From a virus: a DNA stretch of 32,000 bases. Position 1 is the stretch's first letter; every line of letters begins with the position of its first letter. The stretch is taken from IMG/VR virus record IMGVR_UViG_3300045988_146550, positions 1,207 to 33,206 of that record, one strand, 5' to 3'. Positions 11,642 to 32,000 of this stretch are shown one piece after another. The translations under genes were made by a program, and so were the position numbers. The notes beneath the pieces were generated by a model that saw only the letters and a program-made list of their open reading frames with translations, did not search any database and was not told the DNA's origin.

Positions 11642-12444
11642 TACATCTTCATTCCTTTCGTGATCACAAAATTATTTGTTTTTTGTTTAGGTGCTACACT
11701 GTTCAGATAAATTTCAAACTTAGATCCAAACAACGTATCCGGTCTTAGATACTTATTCATCTCTGTATCGTTTAACCATTCATGCGCTTTCACATCAATC
11801 ACAAGCTTAAAGTCTTCCAAGCTAAAGCCTTCATTCCATCTAGCCCGAATCTTCTCTCTAGCAATGCGATTACTGTGTTTGTAACGCTTTGAACATTTAG
11901 AATTCAAGTAGTCAATAATTTCAACATAAGGGATTGTTTCTGATGCTGATAAATCAGTGTCGTCGGAACTTTCTTTTATATTTCTTTTATTATTAACTGT
12001 GTATATAAATGTTTTATTAACTGTCTTACATTGGACAGATTTGTCTTTTGTACATTGGACAGATTTGTCTTTTGTACATTGGACAGATTCGGTAAATGCA
12101 TTGGGCAAATTTGACCAATCGATAGATAAAGCATTTTTTAACTTTTCACCCATATTTCCAAATGCATACCAGCTTGTTTGATTCCAAGGATTTTCATTGT
12201 AATTTCCTTTGATAATCAAATCTTCATCAACCATTTTTTGAAGTATTCTTTGTATCTTTTTTTCACTCCAGTATGGAAATAATTTTTTAAATCCTTTTGC
12301 AGAATTAAACGTCCAATATTTTCCATCATGATAGTTGTAATTATTTGCTTCATTTTTGTTGATCCAAAAACAAAACATATCAAATACAACAGCAACTTCA
12401 ATGCCGTATTTGTCGGCAATTGCAATTTCAAAACTGTGTTTCAT
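11641..12444 (-). CDS. Replication initiator / replisome organiser (DnaD-like N-terminus, conserved phage C-terminal domain)
   Basis: C-terminal IIDYLNSKCSKRYKHSNRIAREKIRARWNEGFSLEDFKLVIDVKAHEW...YLRPDTLFG is the Phg_2220_C-type motif of phage DnaD-domain proteins. Carries internal iterons. Confidence 0.75.
   Translation of the reverse strand: MKHSFEIAIADKYGIEVAVVFDMFCFWINKNEANNYNYHDGKYWTFNSAKGFKKLFPYWSEKKIQRILQKMVDEDLIIKGNYNENPWNQTSWYAFGNMGEKLKNALSIDWSNLPNAFTESVQCTKDKSVQCTKDKSVQCKTVNKTFIYTVNNKRNIKESSDDTDLSASETIPYVEIIDYLNSKCSKRYKHSNRIAREKIRARWNEGFSLEDFKLVIDVKAHEWLNDTEMNKYLRPDTLFGSKFEIYLNSVAPKQKTNNFVITKGMKM
11991..12113. repeat. Putative origin of replication: 24-bp iterons inside the initiator gene
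   Basis: CATTGGACAGATTTGTCTTTTGTA at 12029-12052 and 12053-12076 (identical). Partial copy at 12077-12089 and a degenerate copy at 12099-12113. TATTAACTGT occurs at 11991-12000 and 12015-12024, also 24 bp apart, flanking an AT-rich stretch. Confidence 0.65.
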
Positions 12445-17824: not shown

Positions 17825-18041
17825 ACAATTTGTGTATATGGTGGGGCGATAGTTCCCACATCTCATCAGAATTTACATTCCTACCCTTGACACTTTCGTG
17901 CGCGATAGCCATCTTTCTATCCTCACATACACAATCAGAATGTTTTCTTTCAGCCAATAGACCTATCCAGTTCGAGGTGAACACAAACAACCCTACGGAA
18001 GCTATAAGCACTATGCATGCTGGAACACAATACTTAATCAT
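17823..18041 (-). CDS. Possible small membrane protein (72 aa) in a locally higher-GC islet
   Basis: N-terminal TM helix CVPACIVLIASVGLFVFTSNWIGLL. Weak SD. A hairpin follows directly. A mirror plus-strand ORF of the same length also exists, so coding status is uncertain. Confidence 0.35.
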   Translation of the reverse strand: MIKYCVPACIVLIASVGLFVFTSNWIGLLAERKHSDCVCEDRKMAIAHESVKGRNVNSDEMWELSPHHIHKL

Positions 18042-18186
18042 AGCTTAACAGAACCTAATCTGTGACAAACAAGATAGAGCAGCAAGCTTATCTTCATCCG
18101 TATATTACATTATTTGCTAGTGAATTTCAATCAAATTTCTCCTATTTTGTACTTTTTTGTAACATTGTGTAATCTAATATCACTTT

Positions 18187-19284
18187 TTATAACAACTTAT
18201 TCATCATATCTACAATACTCTTATCTTTTGTATCAAACCAGTGTGCATATGTATTGTGCAATGTTTCAACTGTATCTCCTAAGCGTTTGGCTATGTCAAA
18301 ATCTGAGAATCCAGCTCCTGCCATGTTATTAATTAGAAATGATGCGTGTGAATGTCTAAAATCATGAATTCTTATTTTAGGCAATCCATCATCTTTTTCT
18401 TTTGCCTTGTTATAAGCTTCATCAAATCTTCTTTGTACCGTCTGAGGTGATATTGGTTTATAGTATCCAAACACAAATTTATCTTTTGTGAAATCATCCC
18501 ATTTAGAACATTCTAGAAACCATTCACGAAGCATTTTAGACAAAGTATTAGGCATTGTGATAGTTCTATAGCTATTGTTTGTTTTTGGCGGTGTAAGCCA
18601 TTTATTAGGGTCTTTCTCTTTGTATCTATATGTTTTGTTGATGTCTATAGTTTGTTTTCTAAAATCAATGTCCTTCCATTGTAGGGCCATGGCTTCACCT
18701 TTTCGTAATCCCATATAGAATAAAACAGAATAAAAACATTTCATCATTTGTTCACCCACTTCTTCAATGAATAAATCAAAATCATATTGCTGCCATATTG
18801 TCATTTCTTCTTTTCTTTCATTAAGTCTTAGATCACGTTTCACATATGTCATTGGATTTGATTGGATGTATTCAGAAGTAACACCAAATTTATATAGCTT
18901 ATTTAAAAAGAAATATATTCTTGATACATATGCCTTTGAATATTTCTCATCAAATTTGTTGATCAAGTTTTGCATTTGCCTTTTATCTAAAAAATCAATA
19001 TCTTTCATTTCCTTAGAAAGAACATTGTACAAATATTCATCTGATTTTAAAGTTGATTCTTTTACGTACTTTTTGTTGTACTCCTTAAAAGCTTTATATA
19101 GTCTATCAAAATTCATATCTAATGGAAGCATAAAGAAATCTTTTCTGAATTCAACCTCAGCTTTCTGTGCTTCCCATTTAGAATCAAAACCACGCTTACG
19201 ATATCTCTTTATACATTTACCATCCTTATATATTTTTCCGGCAAACATATATTTTCCTGTCTTCTTATCTAATTCCACTGCCAT
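18187..19284 (-). CDS. int: Phage tyrosine integrase with an N-terminal arm-type DNA-binding domain
   Basis: N-terminus MAVELDKKTGKYMFAGKIYKDGKCIKRYRKRGFDSKWEAQKAE looks like an Arm-DBD. Catalytic residues present: YMGLRKGEA (R), IRIHDFRHSHASFLI (H-x-x-R), LHNTYAHW (Y). SD AGAGGG. Confidence 0.9.
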   Translation of the reverse strand: MAVELDKKTGKYMFAGKIYKDGKCIKRYRKRGFDSKWEAQKAEVEFRKDFFMLPLDMNFDRLYKAFKEYNKKYVKESTLKSDEYLYNVLSKEMKDIDFLDKRQMQNLINKFDEKYSKAYVSRIYFFLNKLYKFGVTSEYIQSNPMTYVKRDLRLNERKEEMTIWQQYDFDLFIEEVGEQMMKCFYSVLFYMGLRKGEAMALQWKDIDFRKQTIDINKTYRYKEKDPNKWLTPPKTNNSYRTITMPNTLSKMLREWFLECSKWDDFTKDKFVFGYYKPISPQTVQRRFDEAYNKAKEKDDGLPKIRIHDFRHSHASFLINNMAGAGFSDFDIAKRLGDTVETLHNTYAHWFDTKDKSIVDMMNKLL

Positions 19285-19604: not shown

Positions 19605-20366
19605 TTATTGAACCTCAATCAATGGGCCACAGTTTACCCAAACTCCGCCAATCTTTGCGAGATCATTTTTCACATTGACTTCATCAACACGAATTCTAGT
19701 AACGTAGACAATCGCATTTGTGGTATGCAATACATTGTCATTGTATCCATCAGAATTACGCACCTTGTCAACTAAGCTGATTGGAAACCAACCGCCTAAT
19801 TGAGCTAAATATGCACACAAATCACCATTGATTTGTTTCAAACCTTCATCTCCAATTTTCATCTGAACGGATGTCACATAACTACCTGCATGCAAGATCT
19901 GGTCAATCGCTTCTGCATGTTGTGGAATACTTGGTTTAGCTGCTCCTGTATTTGCGAAACATTTAGGTCTGAATGCAGTATCGAATGTAGCATAATAAGG
20001 CAATTTACAAAGTGTAAACGCTCCATTCTTACCCCCTTGGTTCTGACCTAAAAACCAACCGAACTTACCATCAATGTCTGAATCGAAAATTGCAATGTGT
20101 GAATACGGTGTCCATCCTGCTACTTCCTTGAATACTGCAATGTCACCAGGCTGCATAACGTTTACTTCATTACAATAATTTAAGATACCGTTAGTCTTAC
20201 GATTGTTCCAAATATCCTTAACAAAGTTACTTGTCGTACAATGAATTGCTTTATATCCTAAATCAATCATGTACTTCATAGTACCATCCCAGCATTGAGC
20301 ACCATAATATCCGTCAATGTCATAGGTTTTTCCGATTACTTTTTCTTTAAAATCATTATAATTCAT
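19605..20366 (-). CDS. Endolysin: N-terminal CHAP peptidase/amidase plus C-terminal cell-wall-binding region
   Basis: Contains YGAQCWDG (catalytic Cys) and GDIAVF...YSHIAIF (His). Immediately follows the holin, with SD GAGGAAGAG. Confidence 0.85.
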   Translation of the reverse strand: MNYNDFKEKVIGKTYDIDGYYGAQCWDGTMKYMIDLGYKAIHCTTSNFVKDIWNNRKTNGILNYCNEVNVMQPGDIAVFKEVAGWTPYSHIAIFDSDIDGKFGWFLGQNQGGKNGAFTLCKLPYYATFDTAFRPKCFANTGAAKPSIPQHAEAIDQILHAGSYVTSVQMKIGDEGLKQINGDLCAYLAQLGGWFPISLVDKVRNSDGYNDNVLHTTNAIVYVTRIRVDEVNVKNDLAKIGGVWVNCGPLIEVQ

Positions 20367-20591
20367 TTACTCTTCCTCTGGTACACTAATTTCAGGTAAT
20401 CCGCCAATACTAGTCAATAACGAAACAATACCTGACAAAACAGCTGACGAAATTACAACTCGCCAATCAACGGCTTCCAATAATGCAGATGCTCCAATAA
20501 CACCAACAGCAGTTTGAGCAATCGTCTTTAATGCTCTAATACTTGCATAATAGCCATATTGAATCCACCATTCTTTACTATATTTTTTCAT
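20367..20591 (-). CDS. Holin (74 aa, r1t / phi-LC3-like)
   Basis: Contains ASIRALKTIAQTAVGVIGA...DWRVVISSAVLSGIVSLLTSIGG with an acidic C-terminus. GGAGG lies 9 nt upstream. The gene abuts the endolysin gene. Confidence 0.75.
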   Translation of the reverse strand: MKKYSKEWWIQYGYYASIRALKTIAQTAVGVIGASALLEAVDWRVVISSAVLSGIVSLLTSIGGLPEISVPEEE

Positions 20592-20630: not shown

Positions 20631-20647
20631 TTTGTACACTGTACAAA
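20631..20647. promoter_or_regulatory. 17-bp palindrome TTTGTACA-C-TGTACAAA upstream of the holin gene
   Basis: Perfect 8-bp arms with a 1-nt centre, which cannot form a normal hairpin, so it is more likely a dimeric protein-binding site. Lies in the 79-bp gap before the holin. Confidence 0.3.
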
Positions 20648-20670
20648 ATAAAAGACCGTGTTTAACGGCC

Positions 20671-21144
20671 TTATTGATACATATTAAACATGTCTCGTAT
20701 ATGTGTCTTAATCATTGTTTTTTCTTCATCTGAATCAACGCATCCATGAATCATAGTTACGATTTGTTGCATACATTTCATAGTCTTATCTAATTCACGA
20801 TGAGACTTTTCCAAATCCATATCACCTTTTGTACGCTCATATTCTTCTTTGAACGCTTTATACTTTTTCAAATGTTCTGCAAGTTTATAAACAATATCTT
20901 CTGTTTCTGGATCATGAATATTATATCCATCATTATCTTCTTTTAATCGAGCTACAGTTGAAGCTCCATCTTTCCCTATCTCAATTTGATATTTATTTCT
21001 CATTGCTTCTATAGTTTCAATGTCTTTGATGTTATCTAAAGCTTGAGATAATGCATGGAAATAAGATTCTGCATATCCATATTTCTCTAACATGTTTACT
21101 GACTCATGCATTATCTTTTCATTAACTTCCATTGCTTTATGCAT
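20671..21144 (-). CDS. Hypothetical helical protein (157 aa)
   Basis: Start moved to the ATG at 21144, 5 nt after AGGTGA (the track uses the GTG at 21153). Confidence 0.6.
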   Translation of the reverse strand: MHKAMEVNEKIMHESVNMLEKYGYAESYFHALSQALDNIKDIETIEAMRNKYQIEIGKDGASTVARLKEDNDGYNIHDPETEDIVYKLAEHLKKYKAFKEEYERTKGDMDLEKSHRELDKTMKCMQQIVTMIHGCVDSDEEKTMIKTHIRDMFNMYQ

Positions 21145-21153
21145 ATTTTTCAC

Positions 21154-21573
21154 CTACGCAATCTTTTTAATGATGATATTTGCGTTTTGAACAGTTAAGT
21201 CTAAACCACTGTTATTTGCTAATGCAATTGTATAAGATGCACCACATGGAACTTGAATTAGAGTATCTCCACTTACATTTCCATACGCACTTGCAGTTGC
21301 AACAGTATAAATAGATTGTGTTCCACCAATTGCTTCTCCGTTTAGTTCAAGCACTAAAGAAGCTTGTCCTGCCGCTGCACTCGTAATATCCGCAGTATAA
21401 GTTACTTCATAGATACCTGGCTTTGTTAGTGTAAACAATCCACTTCCTAGATCATGAGCAAGCCAACCTTTACATGGACACTGGCAGGATTTACTTCTTA
21501 CACGATCTGTAGGAAACAATACATTATTTGAATTATCGACTGTCTGAACAGCCGTAGCAATACTATTAATCAT
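21154..21573 (-). CDS. BclA C-terminal-domain-like (C1q/TNF-type jelly-roll) protein without a collagen-like region
   Basis: Contains FTLTKPGIYEVTYTADITSAAAGQASLVLELNGEAIGGT...QNANIIIKKIA, which parallels the B. anthracis BclA CTD (ETGFYKITV...LTIQVNGVPVPGT...ASIIIEKVA). No GXX repeats. GGAGG SD. Confidence 0.5.
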   Translation of the reverse strand: MINSIATAVQTVDNSNNVLFPTDRVRSKSCQCPCKGWLAHDLGSGLFTLTKPGIYEVTYTADITSAAAGQASLVLELNGEAIGGTQSIYTVATASAYGNVSGDTLIQVPCGASYTIALANNSGLDLTVQNANIIIKKIA

Positions 21574-21587
21574 TTCTTTTATCCTCC

Positions 21588-21619
21588 TATTAAAATAGGG
21601 ATAGCCTTTCGACTATCCC
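21588..21619 (-). terminator. Hairpin terminator after the 210-aa gene
   Basis: GGGATAG (21598-21604), 8-nt loop, CTATCCC (21613-21619). On the minus strand it is followed by TATTTTAAT. Confidence 0.5.
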
Positions 21620-21660
21620 GTTAAATCCAAAGGCAATTGCCTAATCACATATGTGCTAGA

Positions 21661-22293
21661 TTATAAGTTGTTGTAGCCATTACATCCACATCCGTTGTTA
21701 TAAGCGTAATATGGTGAGCATGTAATGTAAGCTGGTTTTGGTGTTGGTTGCAAAGTATTAATGATGTTTGCTGATTGTGCCTGTTGACTTAATTGGAAAT
21801 TAGCCGTCAATAATTCACGATCACGATCAGCTAAACGATCACGTAATTCTTGCATAGTGTTTGCATTGATCAACGCACGTGTTGCTTCACCTTCTGAATG
21901 AATTGCTGTTGTAATGTCACAAGTATTTTTGAAACTTTGCGCATTTACATTGTCAATTGCTCTTTGAGTGTTGCAGCAGCATTCTTGTTGCTGAGCTTGC
22001 AAGTTTTGAAGTCCTAACTGATTAGTATAGCGACTTTCTAGTACGTCTCGTTGAGTTTGGCAACCTGTTTGAGATACATTTGTGTTTGTGTTAAAAATAT
22101 CTCGTTTAATGAATTCTTCATTTAATAAAGAATCATTTGCTAGGTTTCCATTGCCATATCCTCCATATCCTCCATATCCAAATAATACGAAGATTAGCAA
22201 GATCCAAATCCACCAACCTCCGCCGTTTCCAAAGCCGTCATCTCTTTCAGCTAAGTTGTAAGTTGGTTGAATTCCCATTCCGTTTTCCATCAT
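21661..22293 (-). CDS. G/Y-rich membrane protein with a Cys- and Gln-rich ectodomain (210 aa)
   Basis: Contains GFGNGGGWWIWILLIFVLFGYGGYGGYGNGN (YjcZ-like look), CQTQRD...QQQECCCNTQRAID...NTCDITT, and a C-terminal CSPYYAYNNGCGCNGYNNL. AGGAG lies 7 nt upstream. Confidence 0.65.
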   Translation of the reverse strand: MMENGMGIQPTYNLAERDDGFGNGGGWWIWILLIFVLFGYGGYGGYGNGNLANDSLLNEEFIKRDIFNTNTNVSQTGCQTQRDVLESRYTNQLGLQNLQAQQQECCCNTQRAIDNVNAQSFKNTCDITTAIHSEGEATRALINANTMQELRDRLADRDRELLTANFQLSQQAQSANIINTLQPTPKPAYITCSPYYAYNNGCGCNGYNNL

Positions 22294-22334
22294 ATATGTT
22301 CTCCTTTCTTTCTATAATAACGGTTTAGCCGTTG

Positions 22335-22577
22335 TTACCTGATTCCAAACTGTTTTGCCATTTGTTGCAGTTGTTGCTTTTGTTGTGGATTTAAATTACC
22401 CATCATCTGATTTAAAATCATTTGTGGATTTTGGCCACTGTTCATAAGCATTTGAAATTGTTGAAATGCTTGTGGATTTTTCTGTGACAACATATTCATT
22501 AACATTTGTTGGGGATTTCCCATATTCATCATATTCATTGGATTCATATTACCCATAATACTTTTTAAAGGATTCAT
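22335..22577 (-). CDS. M/N/Q/P-rich low-complexity protein (80 aa)
   Basis: Contains MGNMNPMNMMNMGNPQQMLMNMLSQKNPQAFQQFQMLMNSGQNPQMILNQMMGNLNPQQKQQLQQ. ATGA-coupled to the upstream gene. Confidence 0.6.
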   Translation of the reverse strand: MNPLKSIMGNMNPMNMMNMGNPQQMLMNMLSQKNPQAFQQFQMLMNSGQNPQMILNQMMGNLNPQQKQQLQQMAKQFGIR

Positions 22578-23014
22578 TTTGTTTGTGCTCCTTTCTTTGG
22601 CTGTTCATTAGCTTGTTTTGGTGGTTTGCTTAATGCACATATCAAATCATCTAATTTCTTTTCGATTCCATTTACACGATTTTCAATACTGTTAGAATTA
22701 TCTTCTGTGATTTCTTCAAATTTGAACTTTTTAAATGTTCCATCTAAAGATTTCATATAAAAAATAGATTTATTGTTATCAAATAAAATCGTTGGTAAAT
22801 TTGCATTCGCAAAGTTTCTAGCTTCCTGCTCGTCGTTCACCCATTTTCCATTAAAATCAAAATTGCCTTGTTGTTGTGGTGTAATCTGATTATTAATATT
22901 GATAGGTGGAATATTTGCATACTGTTGTACTTGCTGAATTTGTTGATCTATCATTTGTCTTTGTTGCATCAAACTGTCTATTCGTGCTTGTGCTGGATTA
23001 TAATTGTTATACAT
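22574..23014 (-). CDS. Q-rich protein (146 aa)
   Basis: Start moved to the ATG at 23014, 5 nt after AGAGGTGG. N-terminus reads DSLMQQRQMIDQQIQQVQQYANIPP. A globular-looking middle is followed by a Lys-rich tail. Confidence 0.6.
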   Translation of the reverse strand: MYNNYNPAQARIDSLMQQRQMIDQQIQQVQQYANIPPININNQITPQQQGNFDFNGKWVNDEQEARNFANANLPTILFDNNKSIFYMKSLDGTFKKFKFEEITEDNSNSIENRVNGIEKKLDDLICALSKPPKQANEQPKKGAQTK

Positions 23015-23089
23015 TTCAACCACCTCTTTATTACGCTTTAATTATATGGTTACGCAACAAATAATTTAATACTCGAATAATACTCATAA

Positions 23090-23129
23090 AATACCCAAAA
23101 TAAAATGAGCAACCATTATAGATTGCTCA
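23090..23129 (-). terminator. Strong rho-independent terminator ending the tail/fibre operon
   Basis: TGAGCAA (23106-23112), 10-nt loop, TTGCTCA (23123-23129). On the minus strand it is followed by TTTTATTTTGGG. Overlaps the stop codon of the sigma-r4 gene. Confidence 0.7.
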
Positions 23130-23349
23130 CATATTTATCGAACATTTTTCTTGCTTTGCATACTCTGTTTCTAATGGTTTGTACTTCCATATGTAATGCA
23201 TCTGCAATTTCGGTACATGACATGTCATATACGTATCTCATAATCAAAACCTGTTCATATTTCTTTCTTAATCCAACAGACTTGATAAGTATTAATGCAT
23301 CATTAGGACGTATCTCTTTTAATCTGTTAGCTTTGTTAATATAAACCAC
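23116..23349 (-). CDS. Orphan sigma-70 region-4 (HTH) mini-protein (about 77 aa)
   Basis: LRKKYEQVLIMRYVYDMSCTEIADALHMEVQTIRNRVCKARKMFDKY is a textbook region 4.2 HTH. No regions 2 or 3. The start is uncertain: GTG at 23349 has an AAGG only 2-3 nt upstream, and the next in-frame ATG is codon 36. Confidence 0.6.
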   Translation of the reverse strand: MVYINKANRLKEIRPNDALILIKSVGLRKKYEQVLIMRYVYDMSCTEIADALHMEVQTIRNRVCKARKMFDKYVSNL

Positions 23350-23357
23350 CGCCTTAA

Positions 23358-23591
23358 TTAAATTCGTTGGTTTGAATTAGCTTTGCAAGAACAATTATTC
23401 ACATGATCATCTTTCCAATAACCACAACAAACAATAGTAGAATAAAGAACAATAATTACTAGGATTAAAACCGTAATAATCGTTCTACTTGTTTTATAGT
23501 TTCTATCAATTAATTTTGAGCAAAAACCATAAATGTTATCTACTTTTTCCTCTACACTTTGAAGTTTCTTGTTTGCATCTTTAATATCCAT
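23358..23591 (-). CDS. Small membrane protein, N-terminal coiled coil plus C-terminal TM (XhlA-like topology)
   Basis: Contains KKLQSVEEKVDNIYGF...RTIITVLILVIIVLYSTIVCCGYW. Overlaps the upstream gene by 11 nt. Confidence 0.55.
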   Translation of the reverse strand: MDIKDANKKLQSVEEKVDNIYGFCSKLIDRNYKTSRTIITVLILVIIVLYSTIVCCGYWKDDHVNNCSCKANSNQRI

Positions 23592-23874
23592 TTTTATTAT
23601 GATCCTCCAACGCTTTTACACGATTAAACAAAGTAATTATTTGTTGTTTTAGTTCTGAAAGCTCCACTTCCATTGAATTGCTTCCTTTTTTTATTTCTGA
23701 AATTGAATCTTTTATATCACTTAAATCCGATTTAATATGTTCTAATTCATTCTTCAAAAATGCCATATTGGATATTTGCTCTCCATCCATCTTGCGTGTG
23801 CCACGATTATACGTAATAAACGCAATTACAAGCATGCATGCTGAAATAATAACGCTAAGATATTCACCACTCAT
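23581..23874 (-). CDS. Small membrane protein, N-terminal TM plus C-terminal coiled coil
   Basis: LSVIISACMLVIAFITY followed by a heptad-like LKNELEHIKSDLSDIKDSISEIKK...LSELKQQIITLFNRVKALE. Confidence 0.55.
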   Translation of the reverse strand: MSGEYLSVIISACMLVIAFITYNRGTRKMDGEQISNMAFLKNELEHIKSDLSDIKDSISEIKKGSNSMEVELSELKQQIITLFNRVKALEDHNKNGY

Positions 23875-23929: not shown

Positions 23930-24133
23930 TTATTTAGTTGACTGCTTCCATTTTAATTCAAAATCATCTTCTTTTTCGGTTGTATCTAACCACACTTGCT
24001 CTGTATAACCACAACCTTTGCATTCCATGATGCATAATCTAAGCGGGTATCCACAGCTATCTCGTTGTATGACATTACTTTTGCATTTTATTGACATTTT
24101 ATGTCTATGTATTATATTTGAAAATATATTCAT
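23930..24133 (-). CDS. Small Cys-containing protein (67 aa), possible zinc ribbon
   Basis: Contains CGYPLRLCIMECKGCGY. GAGGAGA lies 8 nt upstream. Confidence 0.5.
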   Translation of the reverse strand: MNIFSNIIHRHKMSIKCKSNVIQRDSCGYPLRLCIMECKGCGYTEQVWLDTTEKEDDFELKWKQSTK

Positions 24134-24196: not shown

Positions 24197-26782
24197 TTAG
24201 AGATAAATTCTGTGAATTTCTCCCAGAACATTCATAATATACAGCTCGTCATTCCAAATAAATACTGATTCTGGTTCTGTTGTATAGCCGATGTCAGACA
24301 TTTTTATCTTTGTTACCATATTTTCTTCAAATGGAGAAATCATACCTAAATAAATAGAACCATCTCCAGCCCAATTTGCACCGTAGCATTGCAATATATT
24401 TCCATTGTATACTAATGACCCTTGTGTGCAATTTAATGCAGGGATATTAAACGTTTTTAAAGAATTTGCGATTTCTAACGTAACGTTTCCATCTGAATGA
24501 TTTGGAAGTTTCCACTTTCTAATCCGTAATGCATTTGAATTATCTTCCAAATAACTATTTTTAATATATCCTATTACATAGATACATTGATTTTCATTAT
24601 CTATTGTTGCATTTGGATAATATTGCAAACTCTCTTCAGGACTTGGATAAGTGATTGTCTGTACAACTTCGGTATTATATGCCCCATCAGAATCTGTTAT
24701 ACGCAAAACAATTAATTTGTGTTCTGCAATATTCTCCATGCTCACGTATAAAAGTGGGTATATATCAGTTTTTGAGTATTTCTGTTTGCCAAAATTGATT
24801 GTATTACAGTGGTAAGTTGGCACGGGCGAAAGCACAATTTCACCAATTTTGTTTTTTAAAGCCAAATCATACATTACAATCTTTGACATTGTGTTACATG
24901 CAACAAATAAAATATTTTCATAAACACAACTTCCTTGTATTGATTGTCCTTCAAAAACAGAAGTATCGATTGACATATATTTATAATACGCTAATGTGTT
25001 TTTAGTAATTTCAATTTTCTTTCCTGAGTATGTTCCAAATATTGCATCCGCTGGTATTTTACATAATTTGTTTGAATACACATTATTAATTTTTTCGTAT
25101 GCTTTATTTGCAATCAAAACCAAAGTGATATATCTGTTTTCATCATAACTATTCGGTGTTGTAATTGTTACCTTATTATCAACATACAAAGAAATGGAAA
25201 TACGGACGAATTCTGTTTTTTTTGGTATATCAAATGTATCTTTTTGTACATATCCTTCCGAAGATAGCATTTTTCTGTTCTCATCAAAAAATGTACATCT
25301 GATTTTCCAAAAAGAACCATCTTTATTATTCTGATATAATTTTAGTTCCTTACATCCACCACAATAAATAAGTTCTGGTCGAGAAATACATTCAGTATTA
25401 TCTTTGTGAAGAATTCCATTATATACACTACCTTGAATCCAATTTTTACTCAGGATTTCTTTTTTTGAAAAATTCATTTTCAAATTATCAAGCGATTCCG
25501 ATGAATACGTTAAAAATTTTGAATCTTCTTCTATAATAGGCATATGGCGATATTCTTCTACCGTTGTAGAAGAAGTTGAAGAAATAACAACTCTAAAAAT
25601 TTCACCTTTTTTAATAGGGAACGGTTCTGCCATCCACCCTGAATTAGAAATAAAATCACCAGATGACGTATATTTAGCAACACCGACCCGTTTACCAGAT
25701 GCTATATAAAATGTATAATCTCTGTCGGCTAAAAATTTGTCAGAAACAATTCTATATGAAATATCAGAAATATTTCCATCATCCATTAACCCACCAACAT
25801 TAAATGTAAGTAAAGCGTTTGAATAAATATATCCATTTGCAAATAAAGGAATGCCTTTATCAATTTTATCTATTTTAGCACTATTATAAGTGACAGACCC
25901 ATTTATCCAAACATGCCATTTTACAACACCATTTTCTTTTGCTGCTTTATTATAAAGTCCTAAAGCAACATAATCAGATTTTGCATATACATAAGATTTG
26001 TTTCCCTTAAAGCCAATTAAAGCTTCAAATGTTCCATCTGATTTTTTTCCAAATAACTGATAGTCGAGTGTTTCCATAGATTCTGCTGTAATTCCAATAA
26101 GTACACCCTTCGGCACTTTAAGATATTTTACGTCTTTTGTCGAACTGTGTGGTTGACCTGCGATAGTCTTGTAAGTTGAAGTAAATTCATTCAGAAATAC
26201 ATTTAGTTCATCTAAATCTTCCTGTAGTGAATTAACTTGTGATTGCAAATTTTCACTTTGTGTATTTATCATCTTTGATAATTCGTTATAGATTTGTGCA
26301 ATTCTATCTTCTTCCTCACTACTAGGTGTATAAGATTTAATATAAATTCCATCAGGTGTAGTTACAGATGCAATTTGTGTAGACCATCTTTGATCAATTA
26401 CACTTGAACTATTTTTAGTCACAACTGCGTTCATCGCAAAATGTAATACTCCTGAATTTTTCAAAGCATCAAATGGTACTTTCCATGCAAATTCACAATT
26501 ATCATTATTAATTGTTTTGTTAATCGCAATTGACTGACCCTTAACTCCCTTAGAATCAATCCAATTTATATAAACAATTGAATCTTGCATTTTTTGAATA
26601 TCAGATAACTTGTTTCTGATTCTAAATTTAATCAGTTTAGAATTTCCATCATATTGCACTCCGAACAATCTAGATACATTATTAATATTAATAGTATGTG
26701 TATCTGTATCAATCGTAAGATATTCATCATCATAATCATAAGCAACCGCATCAAAGCTTAGTCTTGCTTTCAATCCGTCCAT
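24197..26782 (-). CDS. Tail fibre / receptor-binding protein (861 aa)
   Basis: Largest distal tail gene. The N-terminus resembles BppU-type anchoring domains. Central coiled coil (NELSKMINTQSENLQSQVNSLQEDLDELNVFLNEF) and a long beta-rich C-terminus. AAGGAGA SD. Confidence 0.65.
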   Translation of the reverse strand: MDGLKARLSFDAVAYDYDDEYLTIDTDTHTININNVSRLFGVQYDGNSKLIKFRIRNKLSDIQKMQDSIVYINWIDSKGVKGQSIAINKTINNDNCEFAWKVPFDALKNSGVLHFAMNAVVTKNSSSVIDQRWSTQIASVTTPDGIYIKSYTPSSEEEDRIAQIYNELSKMINTQSENLQSQVNSLQEDLDELNVFLNEFTSTYKTIAGQPHSSTKDVKYLKVPKGVLIGITAESMETLDYQLFGKKSDGTFEALIGFKGNKSYVYAKSDYVALGLYNKAAKENGVVKWHVWINGSVTYNSAKIDKIDKGIPLFANGYIYSNALLTFNVGGLMDDGNISDISYRIVSDKFLADRDYTFYIASGKRVGVAKYTSSGDFISNSGWMAEPFPIKKGEIFRVVISSTSSTTVEEYRHMPIIEEDSKFLTYSSESLDNLKMNFSKKEILSKNWIQGSVYNGILHKDNTECISRPELIYCGGCKELKLYQNNKDGSFWKIRCTFFDENRKMLSSEGYVQKDTFDIPKKTEFVRISISLYVDNKVTITTPNSYDENRYITLVLIANKAYEKINNVYSNKLCKIPADAIFGTYSGKKIEITKNTLAYYKYMSIDTSVFEGQSIQGSCVYENILFVACNTMSKIVMYDLALKNKIGEIVLSPVPTYHCNTINFGKQKYSKTDIYPLLYVSMENIAEHKLIVLRITDSDGAYNTEVVQTITYPSPEESLQYYPNATIDNENQCIYVIGYIKNSYLEDNSNALRIRKWKLPNHSDGNVTLEIANSLKTFNIPALNCTQGSLVYNGNILQCYGANWAGDGSIYLGMISPFEENMVTKIKMSDIGYTTEPESVFIWNDELYIMNVLGEIHRIYL

Positions 26783-30320: not shown

Positions 30321-31103
30321 TTATTTCTCCCTATAATTACGTATAATTTCTGCACGAATAGCGCCAATATCTGTTGTGATCAATACATTATTTGAACCAT
30401 AATTAAATTTAAGCCCGTCAAAAGATCCACTTGTTTTCAATGTGTCATATTTATACGTTCCATTTTTATAGTATGTTTTCATATAAGAATTTTCCGTATT
30501 GATTTCAACATAAGAAATATCCGATGTACCGTTAAAAGGATTTGTGATTGTAAAATTATTTCCATTACAATTGATCGTAATGGTTTTTGCGTTCATAGAA
30601 GTATTATATAAACGATAGATTGGATATGCTGTTTCATAATAATTCGCAAGTTCTACCTTTTTTCCACTTACAATATCGTACGGCCTTGAGTATTTATTTA
30701 CGTATCTGTACGGTTCACAAATAAATGTGATTGTAAATTCACTTCCTCGTCCAAAGTCTCTAGAATCCATATCGAACGTTACATTTTTTACCTTCCAATA
30801 ATGTTCTCTATCATCACTAGTTAACTCCAATATTCCTTTATTTCCGTTGAAATATTGTTGGATTTTATAGATACGATCTAGATATTCTTTCTTGCTATTC
30901 AAAACAAAGTTGCATTTAATAGGAATTTTGCGATCTTGATATACATCTGTATGACGATACGATGTAGTACCGTCACCAAGTGTAGATGTTTCTACAATTT
31001 CCTCTGCCATAGGAATAACAGGACGTTCGCTTACCTTTAATAAATACATAATATTTTGCGTATAACGCAGTTTATTTTCAGGTGTAAATCTAAAATGATA
31101 CAT
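30321..31103 (-). CDS. Distal tail protein (Dit)
   Basis: About 260 aa, directly after the tape measure gene. Start placed at the ATG at 31103, 8 nt after GGAGG. Beta-rich. Confidence 0.6.
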   Translation of the reverse strand: MYHFRFTPENKLRYTQNIMYLLKVSERPVIPMAEEIVETSTLGDGTTSYRHTDVYQDRKIPIKCNFVLNSKKEYLDRIYKIQQYFNGNKGILELTSDDREHYWKVKNVTFDMDSRDFGRGSEFTITFICEPYRYVNKYSRPYDIVSGKKVELANYYETAYPIYRLYNTSMNAKTITINCNGNNFTITNPFNGTSDISYVEINTENSYMKTYYKNGTYKYDTLKTSGSFDGLKFNYGSNNVLITTDIGAIRAEIIRNYREK

Positions 31104-31104
31104 T

Positions 31105-32000
31105 CTATGAACCTCCATTTCCCCATGATTTCAACATATCTCGAATTGATATAATTTCTTGTACAGTATCTGTAACAACATTTCCATCCAATTGCATAGG
31201 TTGTAGATTGATTGTTAGATCACAATTTCCAATCGCATTAATCATTTGATCCAATCTATTTGTGATTGCACTCAAATTTATATTACCAACGCTTCCATAG
31301 CTTCGTGATGTAGTTCCACCCATAATAGCTGTTGTAGCATTCGCAACAGATGCATATGGACTGATATCTGAATATGTAGCAATCTTATCCGCATCCATTG
31401 GCATTATATCCGTGTCAACTACAGGTTTATCCGCATTAAACAAAGATTGTGGGAAATATTTTTTATTGTCATCACCTTCAACAACTCTTGTCTTTTTTAT
31501 AGTTGTATGTGTAACCGTGATAGGATGACTGTCTGCATAACTTTGAGCTTTATCAATATTTGATTTAATATCTGAATAAGCTTTAGCAGAGCTTGTAACC
31601 ATACCGTCTAAGTGAGGTTGCAGTGATTTTTCCATCTTTCCGCCCATACTTCCAACAGCAGCTGATGTAGTTCCGTCATTCGCAAATGCATCCGCAATAC
31701 CAGTGATTGATTTGTCAGCTTGTTTTTTCATCTTTTCACCGGCTTCTTTCATTTTCGGATCTGTGTCTTGCATCATTTTAGTTACCGCATCTCCAACAGA
31801 CATTTGTCCACTAGCAACTTTTTCAGCTACATCAGCAGGAATTTGTTGTCCTTCAATACCAGCAGTTTGAACTGCCTGTGCCAATGTAATTAAATTGTTC
31901 ATGGCATTGGTTGCTTCTGTGATACTTCCACAATTTGCAAGAATACTATTGGCTACACTCATAGGAATAGAACCACCGATCATACCGGCTTGATCTACAA
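31105..32000 (-). CDS. Tape measure protein, C-terminal part (continues beyond the window)
   Basis: Frame is open to the window edge. A/G/S/T/M-rich helical sequence. Position directly upstream of Dit/Tal. Confidence 0.65.
   Translation of the reverse strand, partial: VDQAGMIGGSIPMSVANSILANCGSITEATNAMNNLITLAQAVQTAGIEGQQIPADVAEKVASGQMSVGDAVTKMMQDTDPKMKEAGEKMKKQADKSITGIADAFANDGTTSAAVGSMGGKMEKSLQPHLDGMVTSSAKAYSDIKSNIDKAQSYADSHPITVTHTTIKKTRVVEGDDNKKYFPQSLFNADKPVVDTDIMPMDADKIATYSDISPYASVANATTAIMGGTTSRSYGSVGNINLSAITNRLDQMINAIGNCDLTINLQPMQLDGNVVTDTVQEIISIRDMLKSWGNGGS

Follow-up and report, generated by a model that had tools for sequence, protein, structure and literature searches.

Closest described systems

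F-BclA forms the collagen-like tip fibrillum of F-ENA, an endospore appendage, and the structure 9H38 is that of the C1q-like domain at its C-terminus, from Bacillus thuringiensis (PMC12357932). XepA and YomS, two beta-sandwich oligomers, are found in the lytic cassettes of Bacillus prophages, and XepA is cytotoxic (PMC6834076). Features of both systems are met in the locus described here, a cassette of five small genes (P1 to P5) preceded by a gene for a protein limited to region 4 of sigma-70 (sigma-r4 protein), on a viral DNA stretch of 32,000 nucleotides (nt) taken from the IMG/VR record IMGVR_UViG_3300045988_146550 (positions 1,207 to 33,206; the whole stretch is called the window below). 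This cassette is one copy of a large, self-contained and widely shared phage module, whose core protein is P3 and in which the place of P4 is taken, in other phages, by an unrelated protein called P4b.

Compared with BclA, P4 shares the BclA_C domain, an end-to-end profile match to the C-terminal domain of F-BclA (F-BclA-CTD) and production without a signal peptide, but it is a stand-alone protein of about 139 amino acids (aa) without collagen GXX repeats or exosporium leader, is encoded by a phage whose host does not sporulate and invariably accompanies P1-P3. The small beta-sandwich subunits of the ENAs (DUF3992 in S-/L-ENA, DUF4183 in F-ENA), with their Cys-bearing N-termini, C1q-type head partners, cytoplasmic assembly and release by lysis of the producing cell, would provide further likenesses, whereas DUF3992 and DUF4183 matches are absent from the module, its hosts include non-spore-formers, and phages of Bacteroidota carry it too.

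The lytic cassettes of PBSX/SPbeta type (xepA/yomS, xhlA/bhlA, holin, endolysin) have in common with the module a beta-rich, oligomer-type protein without signal peptide beside the holin and endolysin genes, as well as small proteins combining a transmembrane (TM) helix and a coiled coil, XhlA-type genes recurring upstream of the module. However, P1, P2 and P3 have no PBSX counterparts, no sequence similarity of P4, P4b or P3 to XepA or YomS was found in profile searches against PDB, and only the module has its own regulator and terminators. Like the i-spanins of Rz/LysB type, P3 combines an N-terminal hydrophobic segment, a putative anchor, with a predicted coiled-coil rod and conserved cysteines, and in crAss-like phages it stands two genes after a weakly Rz-like or LysB/FtsL-like-annotated gene; yet most hosts of the module are monoderm, P3 has neither an o-spanin partner nor sequence similarity to spanins, and in the crAss-like phages it coexists with a separate spanin-like gene. 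Finally, phage morons share with the module the terminator bounds, a candidate promoter and variable insertion sites, but the module is a conserved multi-gene unit with a dedicated helix-turn-helix (HTH) gene, is under strong purifying selection and is far more widespread.

Gene order and conservation of the module

In the window, the five cassette genes all lie on the minus strand, each with a ribosome-binding site (RBS), and the coordinates of their open reading frames (ORFs) bear out the positions and strand assigned to them in a preliminary description of this DNA, as well as the ATGA coupling of P1 and P2. With the sigma-r4 gene they are:

23116-23349, minus: sigma-70 region-4-only HTH protein, 77 aa (Pfam Sigma70_r4_2, E=2e-10)
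22574-23014, minus: P1, 146 aa, ATG start, Shine-Dalgarno (SD) sequence AAAGAGGTGG
22335-22577, minus: P2, 80 aa, its ATG overlapping the P1 stop codon as ATGA
21661-22293, minus: P3, 210 aa, core protein
21154-21573, minus: P4, 139 aa, stand-alone BclA-C / C1q-TNF-type domain
20671-21144, minus: P5, 157 aa from an ATG (160 aa from a GTG), acidic helical protein

For P1, the ORF lister uses an alternative start, the GTG at 23023, which gives 149 aa.

The comparison with other phages is based on 80 viral loci, 46 genome loci and phage records, fetched and searched with iterative hidden Markov models (HMMs) built locally; the locus set comprises 132 loci (designated by L numbers where needed), that is 42 P3 groups at 85% identity. 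Apart from truncated loci, nearly all members of this set have P1, P2 and P3 in the same order on one strand, with P1 upstream of P2-P3 in about 33 of the 42 groups. The slot after P3 is occupied by P4 in 17 groups and by P4b in 19, never by both, and the slot thereafter by P5, by a DUF7841 protein (Pfam E down to 5e-27) or by a protein called C7, in all combinations. The module order is sigma-r4 HTH gene, terminator, P1-P2-P3, often a hairpin, P4 or P4b, and a helical gene. The preliminary description had raised the question of whether the P1-P2-P3 trio and a BclA-C-type gene co-occur in other phages, and they do. In the CPD1 phage (L002, 5005-5655), a 216-aa ORF rich in Cys pairs and without a Pfam match lies between P2 and P3; it may encode a homing endonuclease.

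The module genes are under constraint. Calculated for each gene from 4-86 near-identical loci (10 in the case of P3), the ratio of nonsynonymous to synonymous polymorphism (pN/pS) is comprised between 0.055 and 0.15 for the sigma-r4 gene and P1-P5, which is the range of the holin and endolysin genes as well (0.15 for sigma-r4, 0.08 for P1, 0.065 for P2, 0.055 for P3 and 0.086 for P5). The low value obtained for P2 indicates that this low-complexity gene is a real and constrained one.

In terms of distribution, the relatives of P3 amount to 5545 clusters at 90% identity, and an exhaustive HMM search detects P3 in 1150 clusters at 50% identity, 546 of them scoring E<=1e-10. In all 1150, the protein stands alone and measures about 200-280 aa. 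The 120 clusters listed at 90% identity all lack both a Pfam domain and an informative name. A protein family of this size (over 5500 clusters at 90% identity, over 1100 at 50%) has thus stayed unnamed, although its gene keeps a constant place in the gene order and is strongly constrained by purifying selection. No description of the module was found in the literature on BclA-like phage genes, DUF7841 and the TCSPY motif or in the Yutin 2021 crAss paper, and megablast of the region against the INPHARED phages returned no match. Save for BclA_C in P4 and the uninformative DUF7841, the module is undescribed in the searchable literature, Pfam, NCBIfam, PADLOC and PDB.

Carriers and hosts

The host of this phage is Holdemanella biformis: an exact-sequence look-up identifies proteins of the window with entries of this species (WP_302129787.1 and WP_302129786.1) and finds the P1 sequence on 451 contigs. 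Elsewhere, the module was detected in prophages of Phascolarctobacterium (545-kb contig) and Megasphaera (205-kb contig), on contigs binned to Ruminococcus, Lachnospiraceae, Anaerofustis and others, in Clostridium perfringens phages of CPD1 type and in lemur and rodent gut phages, the hosts of the module phages belonging to the Erysipelotrichia, Clostridia and Negativicutes.

Unexpectedly, crAss-like phages (Suoliviridae: cr1_1, cr52_1, cr53_1, cr115_1 and cr125_1) are among the carriers, their P3 homologue being annotated as 'spike protein/glycoprotein'. With our own HMMs, the crAss-like loci yielded P3 at full length (E 3e-43 and 2e-31), a DUF7841 protein next to it (E about 1e-36) and a weakly P4b-like protein (E 5e-4), whereas P1 and P2 were not detected there by these HMMs. 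Judged from these matches, the crAss-like phages carry a reduced module made of DUF7841, P3 and a weak P4b-like gene. In cr52_1 (L138, 4659-5582), two in-frame TAG codons of the P3 homologue stand at positions occupied by Gln in cr1_1, consistent with a recoding of TAG to Gln, and the N-terminal part of the homologue carries a Met/Asn-rich stretch resembling P2, so that P2 may be fused to P3 in this phage.

The module phages infect major bacteria of the human gut, namely Holdemanella, Lachnospiraceae, Ruminococcus, Negativicutes, C. perfringens and the hosts of crAss-like phages.

P4, a BclA-C-type protein, and its alternative P4b

The resemblance of P4 to the C-terminal domain of BclA, first proposed from the amino acid sequence, is now confirmed by a Pfam BclA_C (PF18573) match above cut-off (41.4 bits for a cut-off of 38, E=1.6e-10) and by the match of the P4 family profile to 9H38 in PDB (E=3.7e-8), which runs from residue 5 to 134 of 135. 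BclA_C is matched by 12 of 21 P4 family members, further PDB matches of the profile are BclA, ExsF and C1q entries (E 0.1-0.7), and RefSeq names P4 'BclA C-terminal domain-containing protein [Holdemanella biformis]'. By sequence, P4 is a genuine domain of BclA-C/C1q type, and by homology it would adopt a trimeric jelly-roll fold.

Neither a collagen GXX run nor an N-terminal exosporium-targeting leader was found in the 139 aa of P4, whose N-terminal region bears a Cys motif, SCQCPC. The 120 listed relatives of P4 all measure 135-142 aa, contain BclA_C alone or no Pfam domain, and include none with a collagen domain. On an ENA contig of 3119 nt, a 221-aa protein (P0162) combines a Pfam BclA_C match with 96% identity to P1 along 92% of the P1 length, which reflects either a deletion fusing P1 to P4 or an assembly artefact.

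P4b is a Cys-rich, beta-type protein that also has a Cys motif near its N-terminus and is unrelated to P4, hhalign giving no relationship between the two, nor between P5 and either C5 or C7 (probability <=3%). The P4b profile matched nothing significant in PDB, XepA and YomS are absent from the PDB profile matches of P4, P4b and P5, and neither P4, P4b nor their neighbours have a Pfam match to the ENA families DUF3992 or DUF4183.

P3, the core protein

P3 starts with an acidic N-terminal tail, followed by a short hydrophobic segment flanked by G, W and Y residues. Its middle part comprises a helical region, an invariant CCC bounding a 29-aa repeat present in one to three copies, an invariant NTC and a long helix, and its C-terminal part an invariant P-A-Y-(I/L)-T-C-S-P-Y motif and a tail rich in G, C and Y. 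Proteins of the family have a median of 10 Cys; the window copy contains 3.8% C, 9.5% G and 12% N.

The membrane segment that had been attributed to P3 is present as a hydrophobic stretch but is not secure as such, being short and weak (Kyte-Doolittle (KD) maximum over 19 residues of 1.54, against 2.0-3.0 for the holin and the neighbouring TM proteins) and devoid of a positive-inside signal. Membrane anchoring of P3, as judged from these sequence features, is plausible but not secure. The likeness of the same region to YjcZ, proposed in the preliminary description, found no support, since the NCBIfam model for the YjcZ/SscA 'tiny TM' proteins, TIGR01732, does not match the N-terminal segment of P3 at E<=1. 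An AlphaFold2 (AF2) model of P3 based on an alignment of 24 sequences was unusable, with a predicted local distance difference test score (pLDDT) of 45.

In two loci (L104, 5983-7121, and L106, 999-2111), inserts of 1.1 kb split P3 exactly at the invariant CCC motif and carry an endonuclease-like ORF of 272-274 aa, GIY-YIG-like in L104. Rfam matched nothing at gathering threshold in the interrupted P3 loci; a sub-threshold match to a group I intron was obtained at 6735-6961 of L104 (31 bits, E=1.2e-4). From these features, the insert is probably a self-splicing intron.

P1, P2, P5 and exchangeable partners

The low-complexity compositions named in the preliminary description are reflected in the computed residue percentages: P2 contains 21% Q, 16% N and 20% M, against 3.0, 6.8 and 2.9% respectively in the window background, and P1 contains 12% Q and 14% N. 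In P1, a variable, Q/N-rich N-terminus (Q/N/Y/P) that includes a helix precedes a small alpha/beta domain (residues 55-100), and a further helix forms the C-terminus. An AF2 model based on 64 sequences reaches pLDDT values above 90 for residues 55-100; it matches no PDB fold (best E 0.37), and its matches in BFVD, down to 1.5e-14, are all uncharacterised gut-phage proteins. A GerQ-like reading of P1 was dropped, the PDB search being without match.

P2 is an M/N/Q-rich helical protein with 'NP' repeats, the NP being invariant in the family alignment, and a C-terminus in ...QFGIR, and it is homologous to gp037 of CPD1 (E 2e-7). Its PDB matches to TALE effectors were rejected as the sum of weak repeat matches, with no stretch passing alone, and a relationship to STI1/DP or ubiquilin-like proteins is retained as a lead only, since STI1, XPC-binding and SurA-type matches were given by single members only, at E about 0.02-0.03.

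The N-terminus of P5 is homologous to gp042 of CPD1 (3e-7) and its C-terminus to a 247-aa protein of Dulem virus 39 (2e-4). In Pfam, P5 gives a weak YppG-like match below cut-off (E 0.0065), and its profile matches nothing in PDB; in other phages its slot is filled by the DUF7841 or C7 proteins. Sometimes found directly after P3, P6 is a protein of 70-80 aa with a hydrophobic stretch and a coiled coil. Pfam support was found neither for a BhlA-like P6 nor for a ferritin- or CotJC-like C7.

Pfam, NCBIfam, PADLOC and PHROG searches with P1, P2, P3 and P5 returned noise or unnamed PHROGs only, and profile searches against PDB gave nothing real for these four proteins or for P4b. The view that the cassette is not standard virion or lysis equipment thus stands, P1, P2, P3 and P5 having no significant sequence match in Pfam, NCBIfam, PADLOC or PDB. 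The defence models of PADLOC 2.0 gave only noise (JetA, E 0.008-0.04 over 24 residues). P1, P2, P4 and P5 are devoid of candidate signal peptides and TM segments, their KD maxima not exceeding 0.92.

Regulatory elements

Within 5.5 kb scanned for terminators, seven sites with a hairpin followed by T residues were detected, compared to 2.0 +/- 1.3 in shuffled sequence. Three of these sites, on the minus strand, substantiate the proposal of a terminator-bounded cassette, which is organized as follows:

23105-23130, minus: intrinsic terminator 1, a 10-bp stem then TTTATTTT, overlapping the stop codon of the sigma-r4 gene
23041-23085, minus: putative module promoter, a direct repeat of GAGTATTA (two copies) and a perfect -10 TATAAT, read from the sequence
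21598-21619, minus: hairpin behind P3 ending in a T-rich tail, with the SD sequence of P4 starting 5 nt further on
20652-20672, minus: intrinsic terminator 3, closing the cassette (terminator scan)
20632-20646: perfect palindrome TTGTACAcTGTACAA, located after terminator 3 and before the holin RBS

Terminator 1 had been taken for the end of a tail/fibre operon; the terminator is real, but it overlaps the stop codon of the sigma-r4 gene and not the end of a fibre gene. As for the hairpin after P3, it is likely either a partial terminator or a stabiliser of the mRNA 3' end. Of 17 diverse loci, at least 13 have a GC hairpin and T-run immediately before P1, and of 41 diverse groups, about 16 have a hairpin and T-run behind P3. 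This recurrence indicates that being bounded by terminators is a conserved property of the module and not a local accident.

Between terminator 1 and P1, a perfect -10 TATAAT is found at 23046-23041, preceded by the two copies of GAGTATTA (23085-23078 and 23074-23067), the second of which overlaps a weak -35 (TTAAAT). The element was not called by a consensus scan, its -35 matching at only 3 of 6 positions; its promoter function is putative, and the GAGTATTA repeat is a candidate binding site for the sigma-r4 protein. At the equivalent place in a related phage (L089, upstream of 606), three copies of TAGTAT and a TATAAT are present.

The identification of a sigma region-4 protein immediately upstream of the cassette is confirmed by a match above the Pfam cut-off (Sigma70_r4_2). 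The same protein matches Pfam Phage_antitermQ (2e-4) and both sigma and Q-like PHROG families. With its 77 aa, it is incomplete as a sigma factor: in Pfam it corresponds to region 4 alone, region 2 (core binding and -10 recognition) being unmatched. At least 15 of the 42 P3 groups have a small HTH gene of sigma-r4 or LuxR type, from one of three sequence clusters, just before P1 and about 1.05 kb ahead of the start of P3, so that the sigma-r4 gene belongs with the cassette. Its product is likely a regulator of the module.

The palindrome TTGTACAcTGTACAA is the sole exact match (0 mismatches) within the window and possibly serves as operator or promoter part for the lysis genes. In the early region, TTGTACATTGGACAG, which differs from the holin-proximal palindrome at 2 mismatches, occurs in two identical copies 24 nt apart (window 12048-12062 and 12072-12086). 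On this similarity, the two copies may be sites for the same regulator.

Genomic neighbourhood and a possible role in lysis

On either side of the cassette, the window contains the following genes:

30321-31118, minus: Dit, in the region of the tail genes
24197-26782, minus: 861-aa ORF, a fibre gene by its position after Dit and the tail genes only
23930-24133, minus: 67-aa ORF
23581-23874, minus: XhlA-like protein, 97 aa, N-terminal TM helix and coiled coil, a context gene that recurs upstream of the module
23358-23591, minus: 77-aa single-pass membrane protein with a Cys-rich tail CCGYWKDDHVNNCSCK, a context gene
20367-20591, minus: r1t-type holin, 74 aa (Pfam Phage_r1t_holin 1.4e-11; PHROG 443 holin 3.9e-15)
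19605-20366, minus: CHAP endolysin, 253 aa (Pfam CHAP 8.5e-6, above cut-off; PHROG endolysin families)
18187-19284, minus: integrase

The 861-aa ORF had been called a tail fibre, a label that its position fits but for which PHROG gives no support, no match being found at E<=1e-3. Four small genes, one of them XhlA-like, separate this ORF from the cassette. The XhlA-like protein has a KD maximum of 1.96 at residue 3 and weakly matches the PHROG 'hemolysin' (XhlA) families 1193 and 937. The 77-aa membrane protein (KD maximum 2.98, 6.5% Cys) is restricted to the phage lineage of the window. The picture of a cassette wedged between the tail-fibre and lysis modules therefore needs revising: with an XhlA-like gene upstream, it lies inside or beside the lysis region, as in many unrelated phages.

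Indeed, the window and L003 share the succession XhlA-like gene, TM protein, sigma-r4 gene, module, holin and CHAP endolysin. A CHAP endolysin gene lies downstream of the module in L073, an endolysin gene immediately upstream in L095 and L107, and a holin gene with a peptidoglycan-binding gene upstream in L136. XhlA-type genes of PHROG 937 (2e-9 to 7e-13) precede the module in L102, L125 and L128, and L134 and L108 have matches to our own xhlA HMM. In cr1_1, the order is holin (PHROG 199, 4e-6), weakly Rz-like spanin gene (PHROG 739, 7e-4), DUF7841, P3, weakly P4b-like protein, two small genes and a protein with a 'transpeptidase catalytic domain', and in cr52_1 a LysB/FtsL-like-annotated gene is followed by DUF7841 and P3.

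This nesting among XhlA, holin, spanin-like and endolysin genes, from siphophages of Firmicutes to Crassvirales, leads us to favour, with less than even confidence, a module that would act late, at the cell envelope and coupled to lysis, with P3 as a Cys-rich coiled-coil core held by its hydrophobic segment. The reading also draws on the XhlA/Rz-like layout of P3 and P6, on the lack of detectable export signals in P1, P2, P4 and P5, and on the precedent of XepA and YomS in the lytic cassettes of Bacillus prophages. Hosts that do not sporulate and that are monoderm as well as diderm fit a function common to all phage infections.

In such a module, P3 would be a Cys-rich coiled-coil rod with a short hydrophobic N-terminal anchor, acting as the working core at the cytoplasmic membrane, in a layout that resembles XhlA, BhlA or Rz-type lysis proteins in general plan. 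P1, with its low-complexity part, small domain and helix, and the Met/Gln-rich helical P2 would assist or scaffold P3, while a P4 trimer and P5 would be partners of lower abundance, produced by read-through of the hairpin after P3. Since P1, P2, P4 and P5 have no export signal, they would act only inside the cell or after its opening by holin and endolysin. The expression timing, the membrane location, the binding partners and the effect of the module on lysis or egress are what we infer from these elements. If true, a role in lysis or egress would reveal an unrecognised component of a process considered as well understood, common to monoderm and diderm hosts. The module is tractable, with a cultivable host, small genes and clear motifs (CCC, PAYxTCSPY).

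Several points weigh against a lysis-coupled role. In several phages, no recognisable lysis gene adjoins the module, as in L093, L113, L123, L116 and Dulem virus 39. Its neighbours are minor head and scaffold genes on either side in L093, a preceding gene for the major head protein in L113 and L125, and integrase, primase, methyltransferase or terminase genes in L123, L095, L112 and L116, while Dulem virus 39 has it in the replication region and CPD1 at a distance of 3.4 kb beyond the holin gene. Accessory genes ('morons') classically insert at the end of the late operon, and little weight can therefore be given to adjacency by itself. The phage of the window already has a canonical holin and endolysin, and the hydrophobic segment of P3 is without flanking positive charges. 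We know of no lysis protein with a C1q/BclA-type trimer, Cys-rich tails or low-complexity regions rich in Q, N, Y and G.

The variety of the flanking genes indicates that the module is mobile, with a clear but non-universal preference for the lysis region. The variable insertion sites also weaken a reading as an accessory of the tail fibre.

Alternative roles

Another proposal starts from P4 and its homology to the tip-fibrillum head F-BclA-CTD. The module would build a collagen-free, BclA/ENA-like assembly of stalk and head, with a Cys-cross-linkable stalk of P3 trimers, varying in length with the CCC-bounded 29-aa repeat, and an exchangeable P4 or P4b head, P1 and P2 serving as scaffold or chaperone. 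Like spore appendages in the mother cell, it would be built in the cytoplasm without secretion, in agreement with the lack of detectable signal peptides in P1, P2, P4 and P5, and would either come to the outside when the cell lyses or decorate virions as an adhesive. The mutual exclusion of P4 and P4b (17 versus 19 of 42 groups) looks like head swapping, and their N-terminal Cys motifs recall the N-terminal connectors of the ENAs (PMC12357932). P3 is rich in Cys (median 10, invariant CCC, G/C-rich tail) and has a repeat in one to three copies, the hairpin after P3 would yield more stalk than head, and the module often follows tail or head genes.

However, no fusion of stalk and head was seen among 150 P3 representatives or 120 P4 relatives, no DUF3992 or DUF4183 signal was found in P4 or P4b, and P4 is conserved as much as P3, with no sign of receptor-driven diversification. 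Virion genes do not usually have terminators and a regulator of their own or lie, as the module does in some phages, in the replication region. Both gut lumen and cytoplasm are reducing, and the AF2 model of P3 (pLDDT 45) provides no structure for the stalk. Overall, a stalk-and-head assembly is considered unlikely. Its extended form, a self-regulated kit present in gut phages of several orders, from siphophages of Firmicutes to crAss-like phages, deployed at lysis and, for instance, tethering or clumping virions and cell ghosts or sticking them to gut surfaces, is similarly doubtful. The stalk-and-head and lysis-coupled readings are compatible, one describing what is built and the other when and where. 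If true, a BclA-like structure would represent a new class of phage-made extracellular structure, relevant to gut persistence and adhesion.

A third possibility is that of an accessory unit of moron type, expressed from the prophage, which would use a membrane-tethered complex for lysogenic conversion, superinfection exclusion or defence against phages. The module is indeed a terminator-bounded unit with its own candidate promoter, its carriers include integrase-bearing phages and integrated prophages, and in L091 no further phage genes separate it from a host ABC-transporter gene. Its insertion sites vary widely, and genes of homing-endonuclease type are found in or beside it. On the other hand, a conserved order of 5-7 genes under strong purifying selection, found in more than 1000 clusters (50% identity) across phage orders, is unlike fast-turnover cargo. 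Neither a PADLOC match, nor export signals for a surface function, nor enzymatic or nucleic-acid-sensing domains were found, and the reduced form occurs in crAss-like phages, which to our knowledge are not classical temperate phages. A prophage-expressed accessory role is thus given only a modest chance.

The preliminary description had also linked the cassette to the spore coat, the exosporium or sporulation, and a device remodelling the spore surface of the host would agree with the homology of P4 to BclA-C, the coat-like composition (Q-rich, G/Y-rich, Cys-rich), the weak YppG-like match of P5 (E 0.0065, below cut-off) and the spore-forming hosts of some carriers such as the C. perfringens phages, but collagen repeats and an exosporium leader were not found in P4, nor a YjcZ/TIGR01732 match, and H. 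biformis DSM 3989 is classified as a Former-Spore-Former that is not ethanol resistant (Browne et al. 2021, PMC8340488, Table S3). The carrier range, which extends beyond spore-formers with the Phascolarctobacterium and Megasphaera prophages and the reduced form in crAss-like phages, excludes a sporulation-specific role; as a general explanation, sporulation is largely refuted, and we regard it as very improbable.

Other features of the window

Just downstream of the integrase gene, two adjacent structured RNAs were detected on the minus strand above the Rfam gathering score, namely a drum RNA (RF02958, window 17935-18046, 74.8 bits) and a skipping-rope RNA (RF02924, window 17833-17931, 57.9 bits), which overlap spurious 72-aa ORFs.

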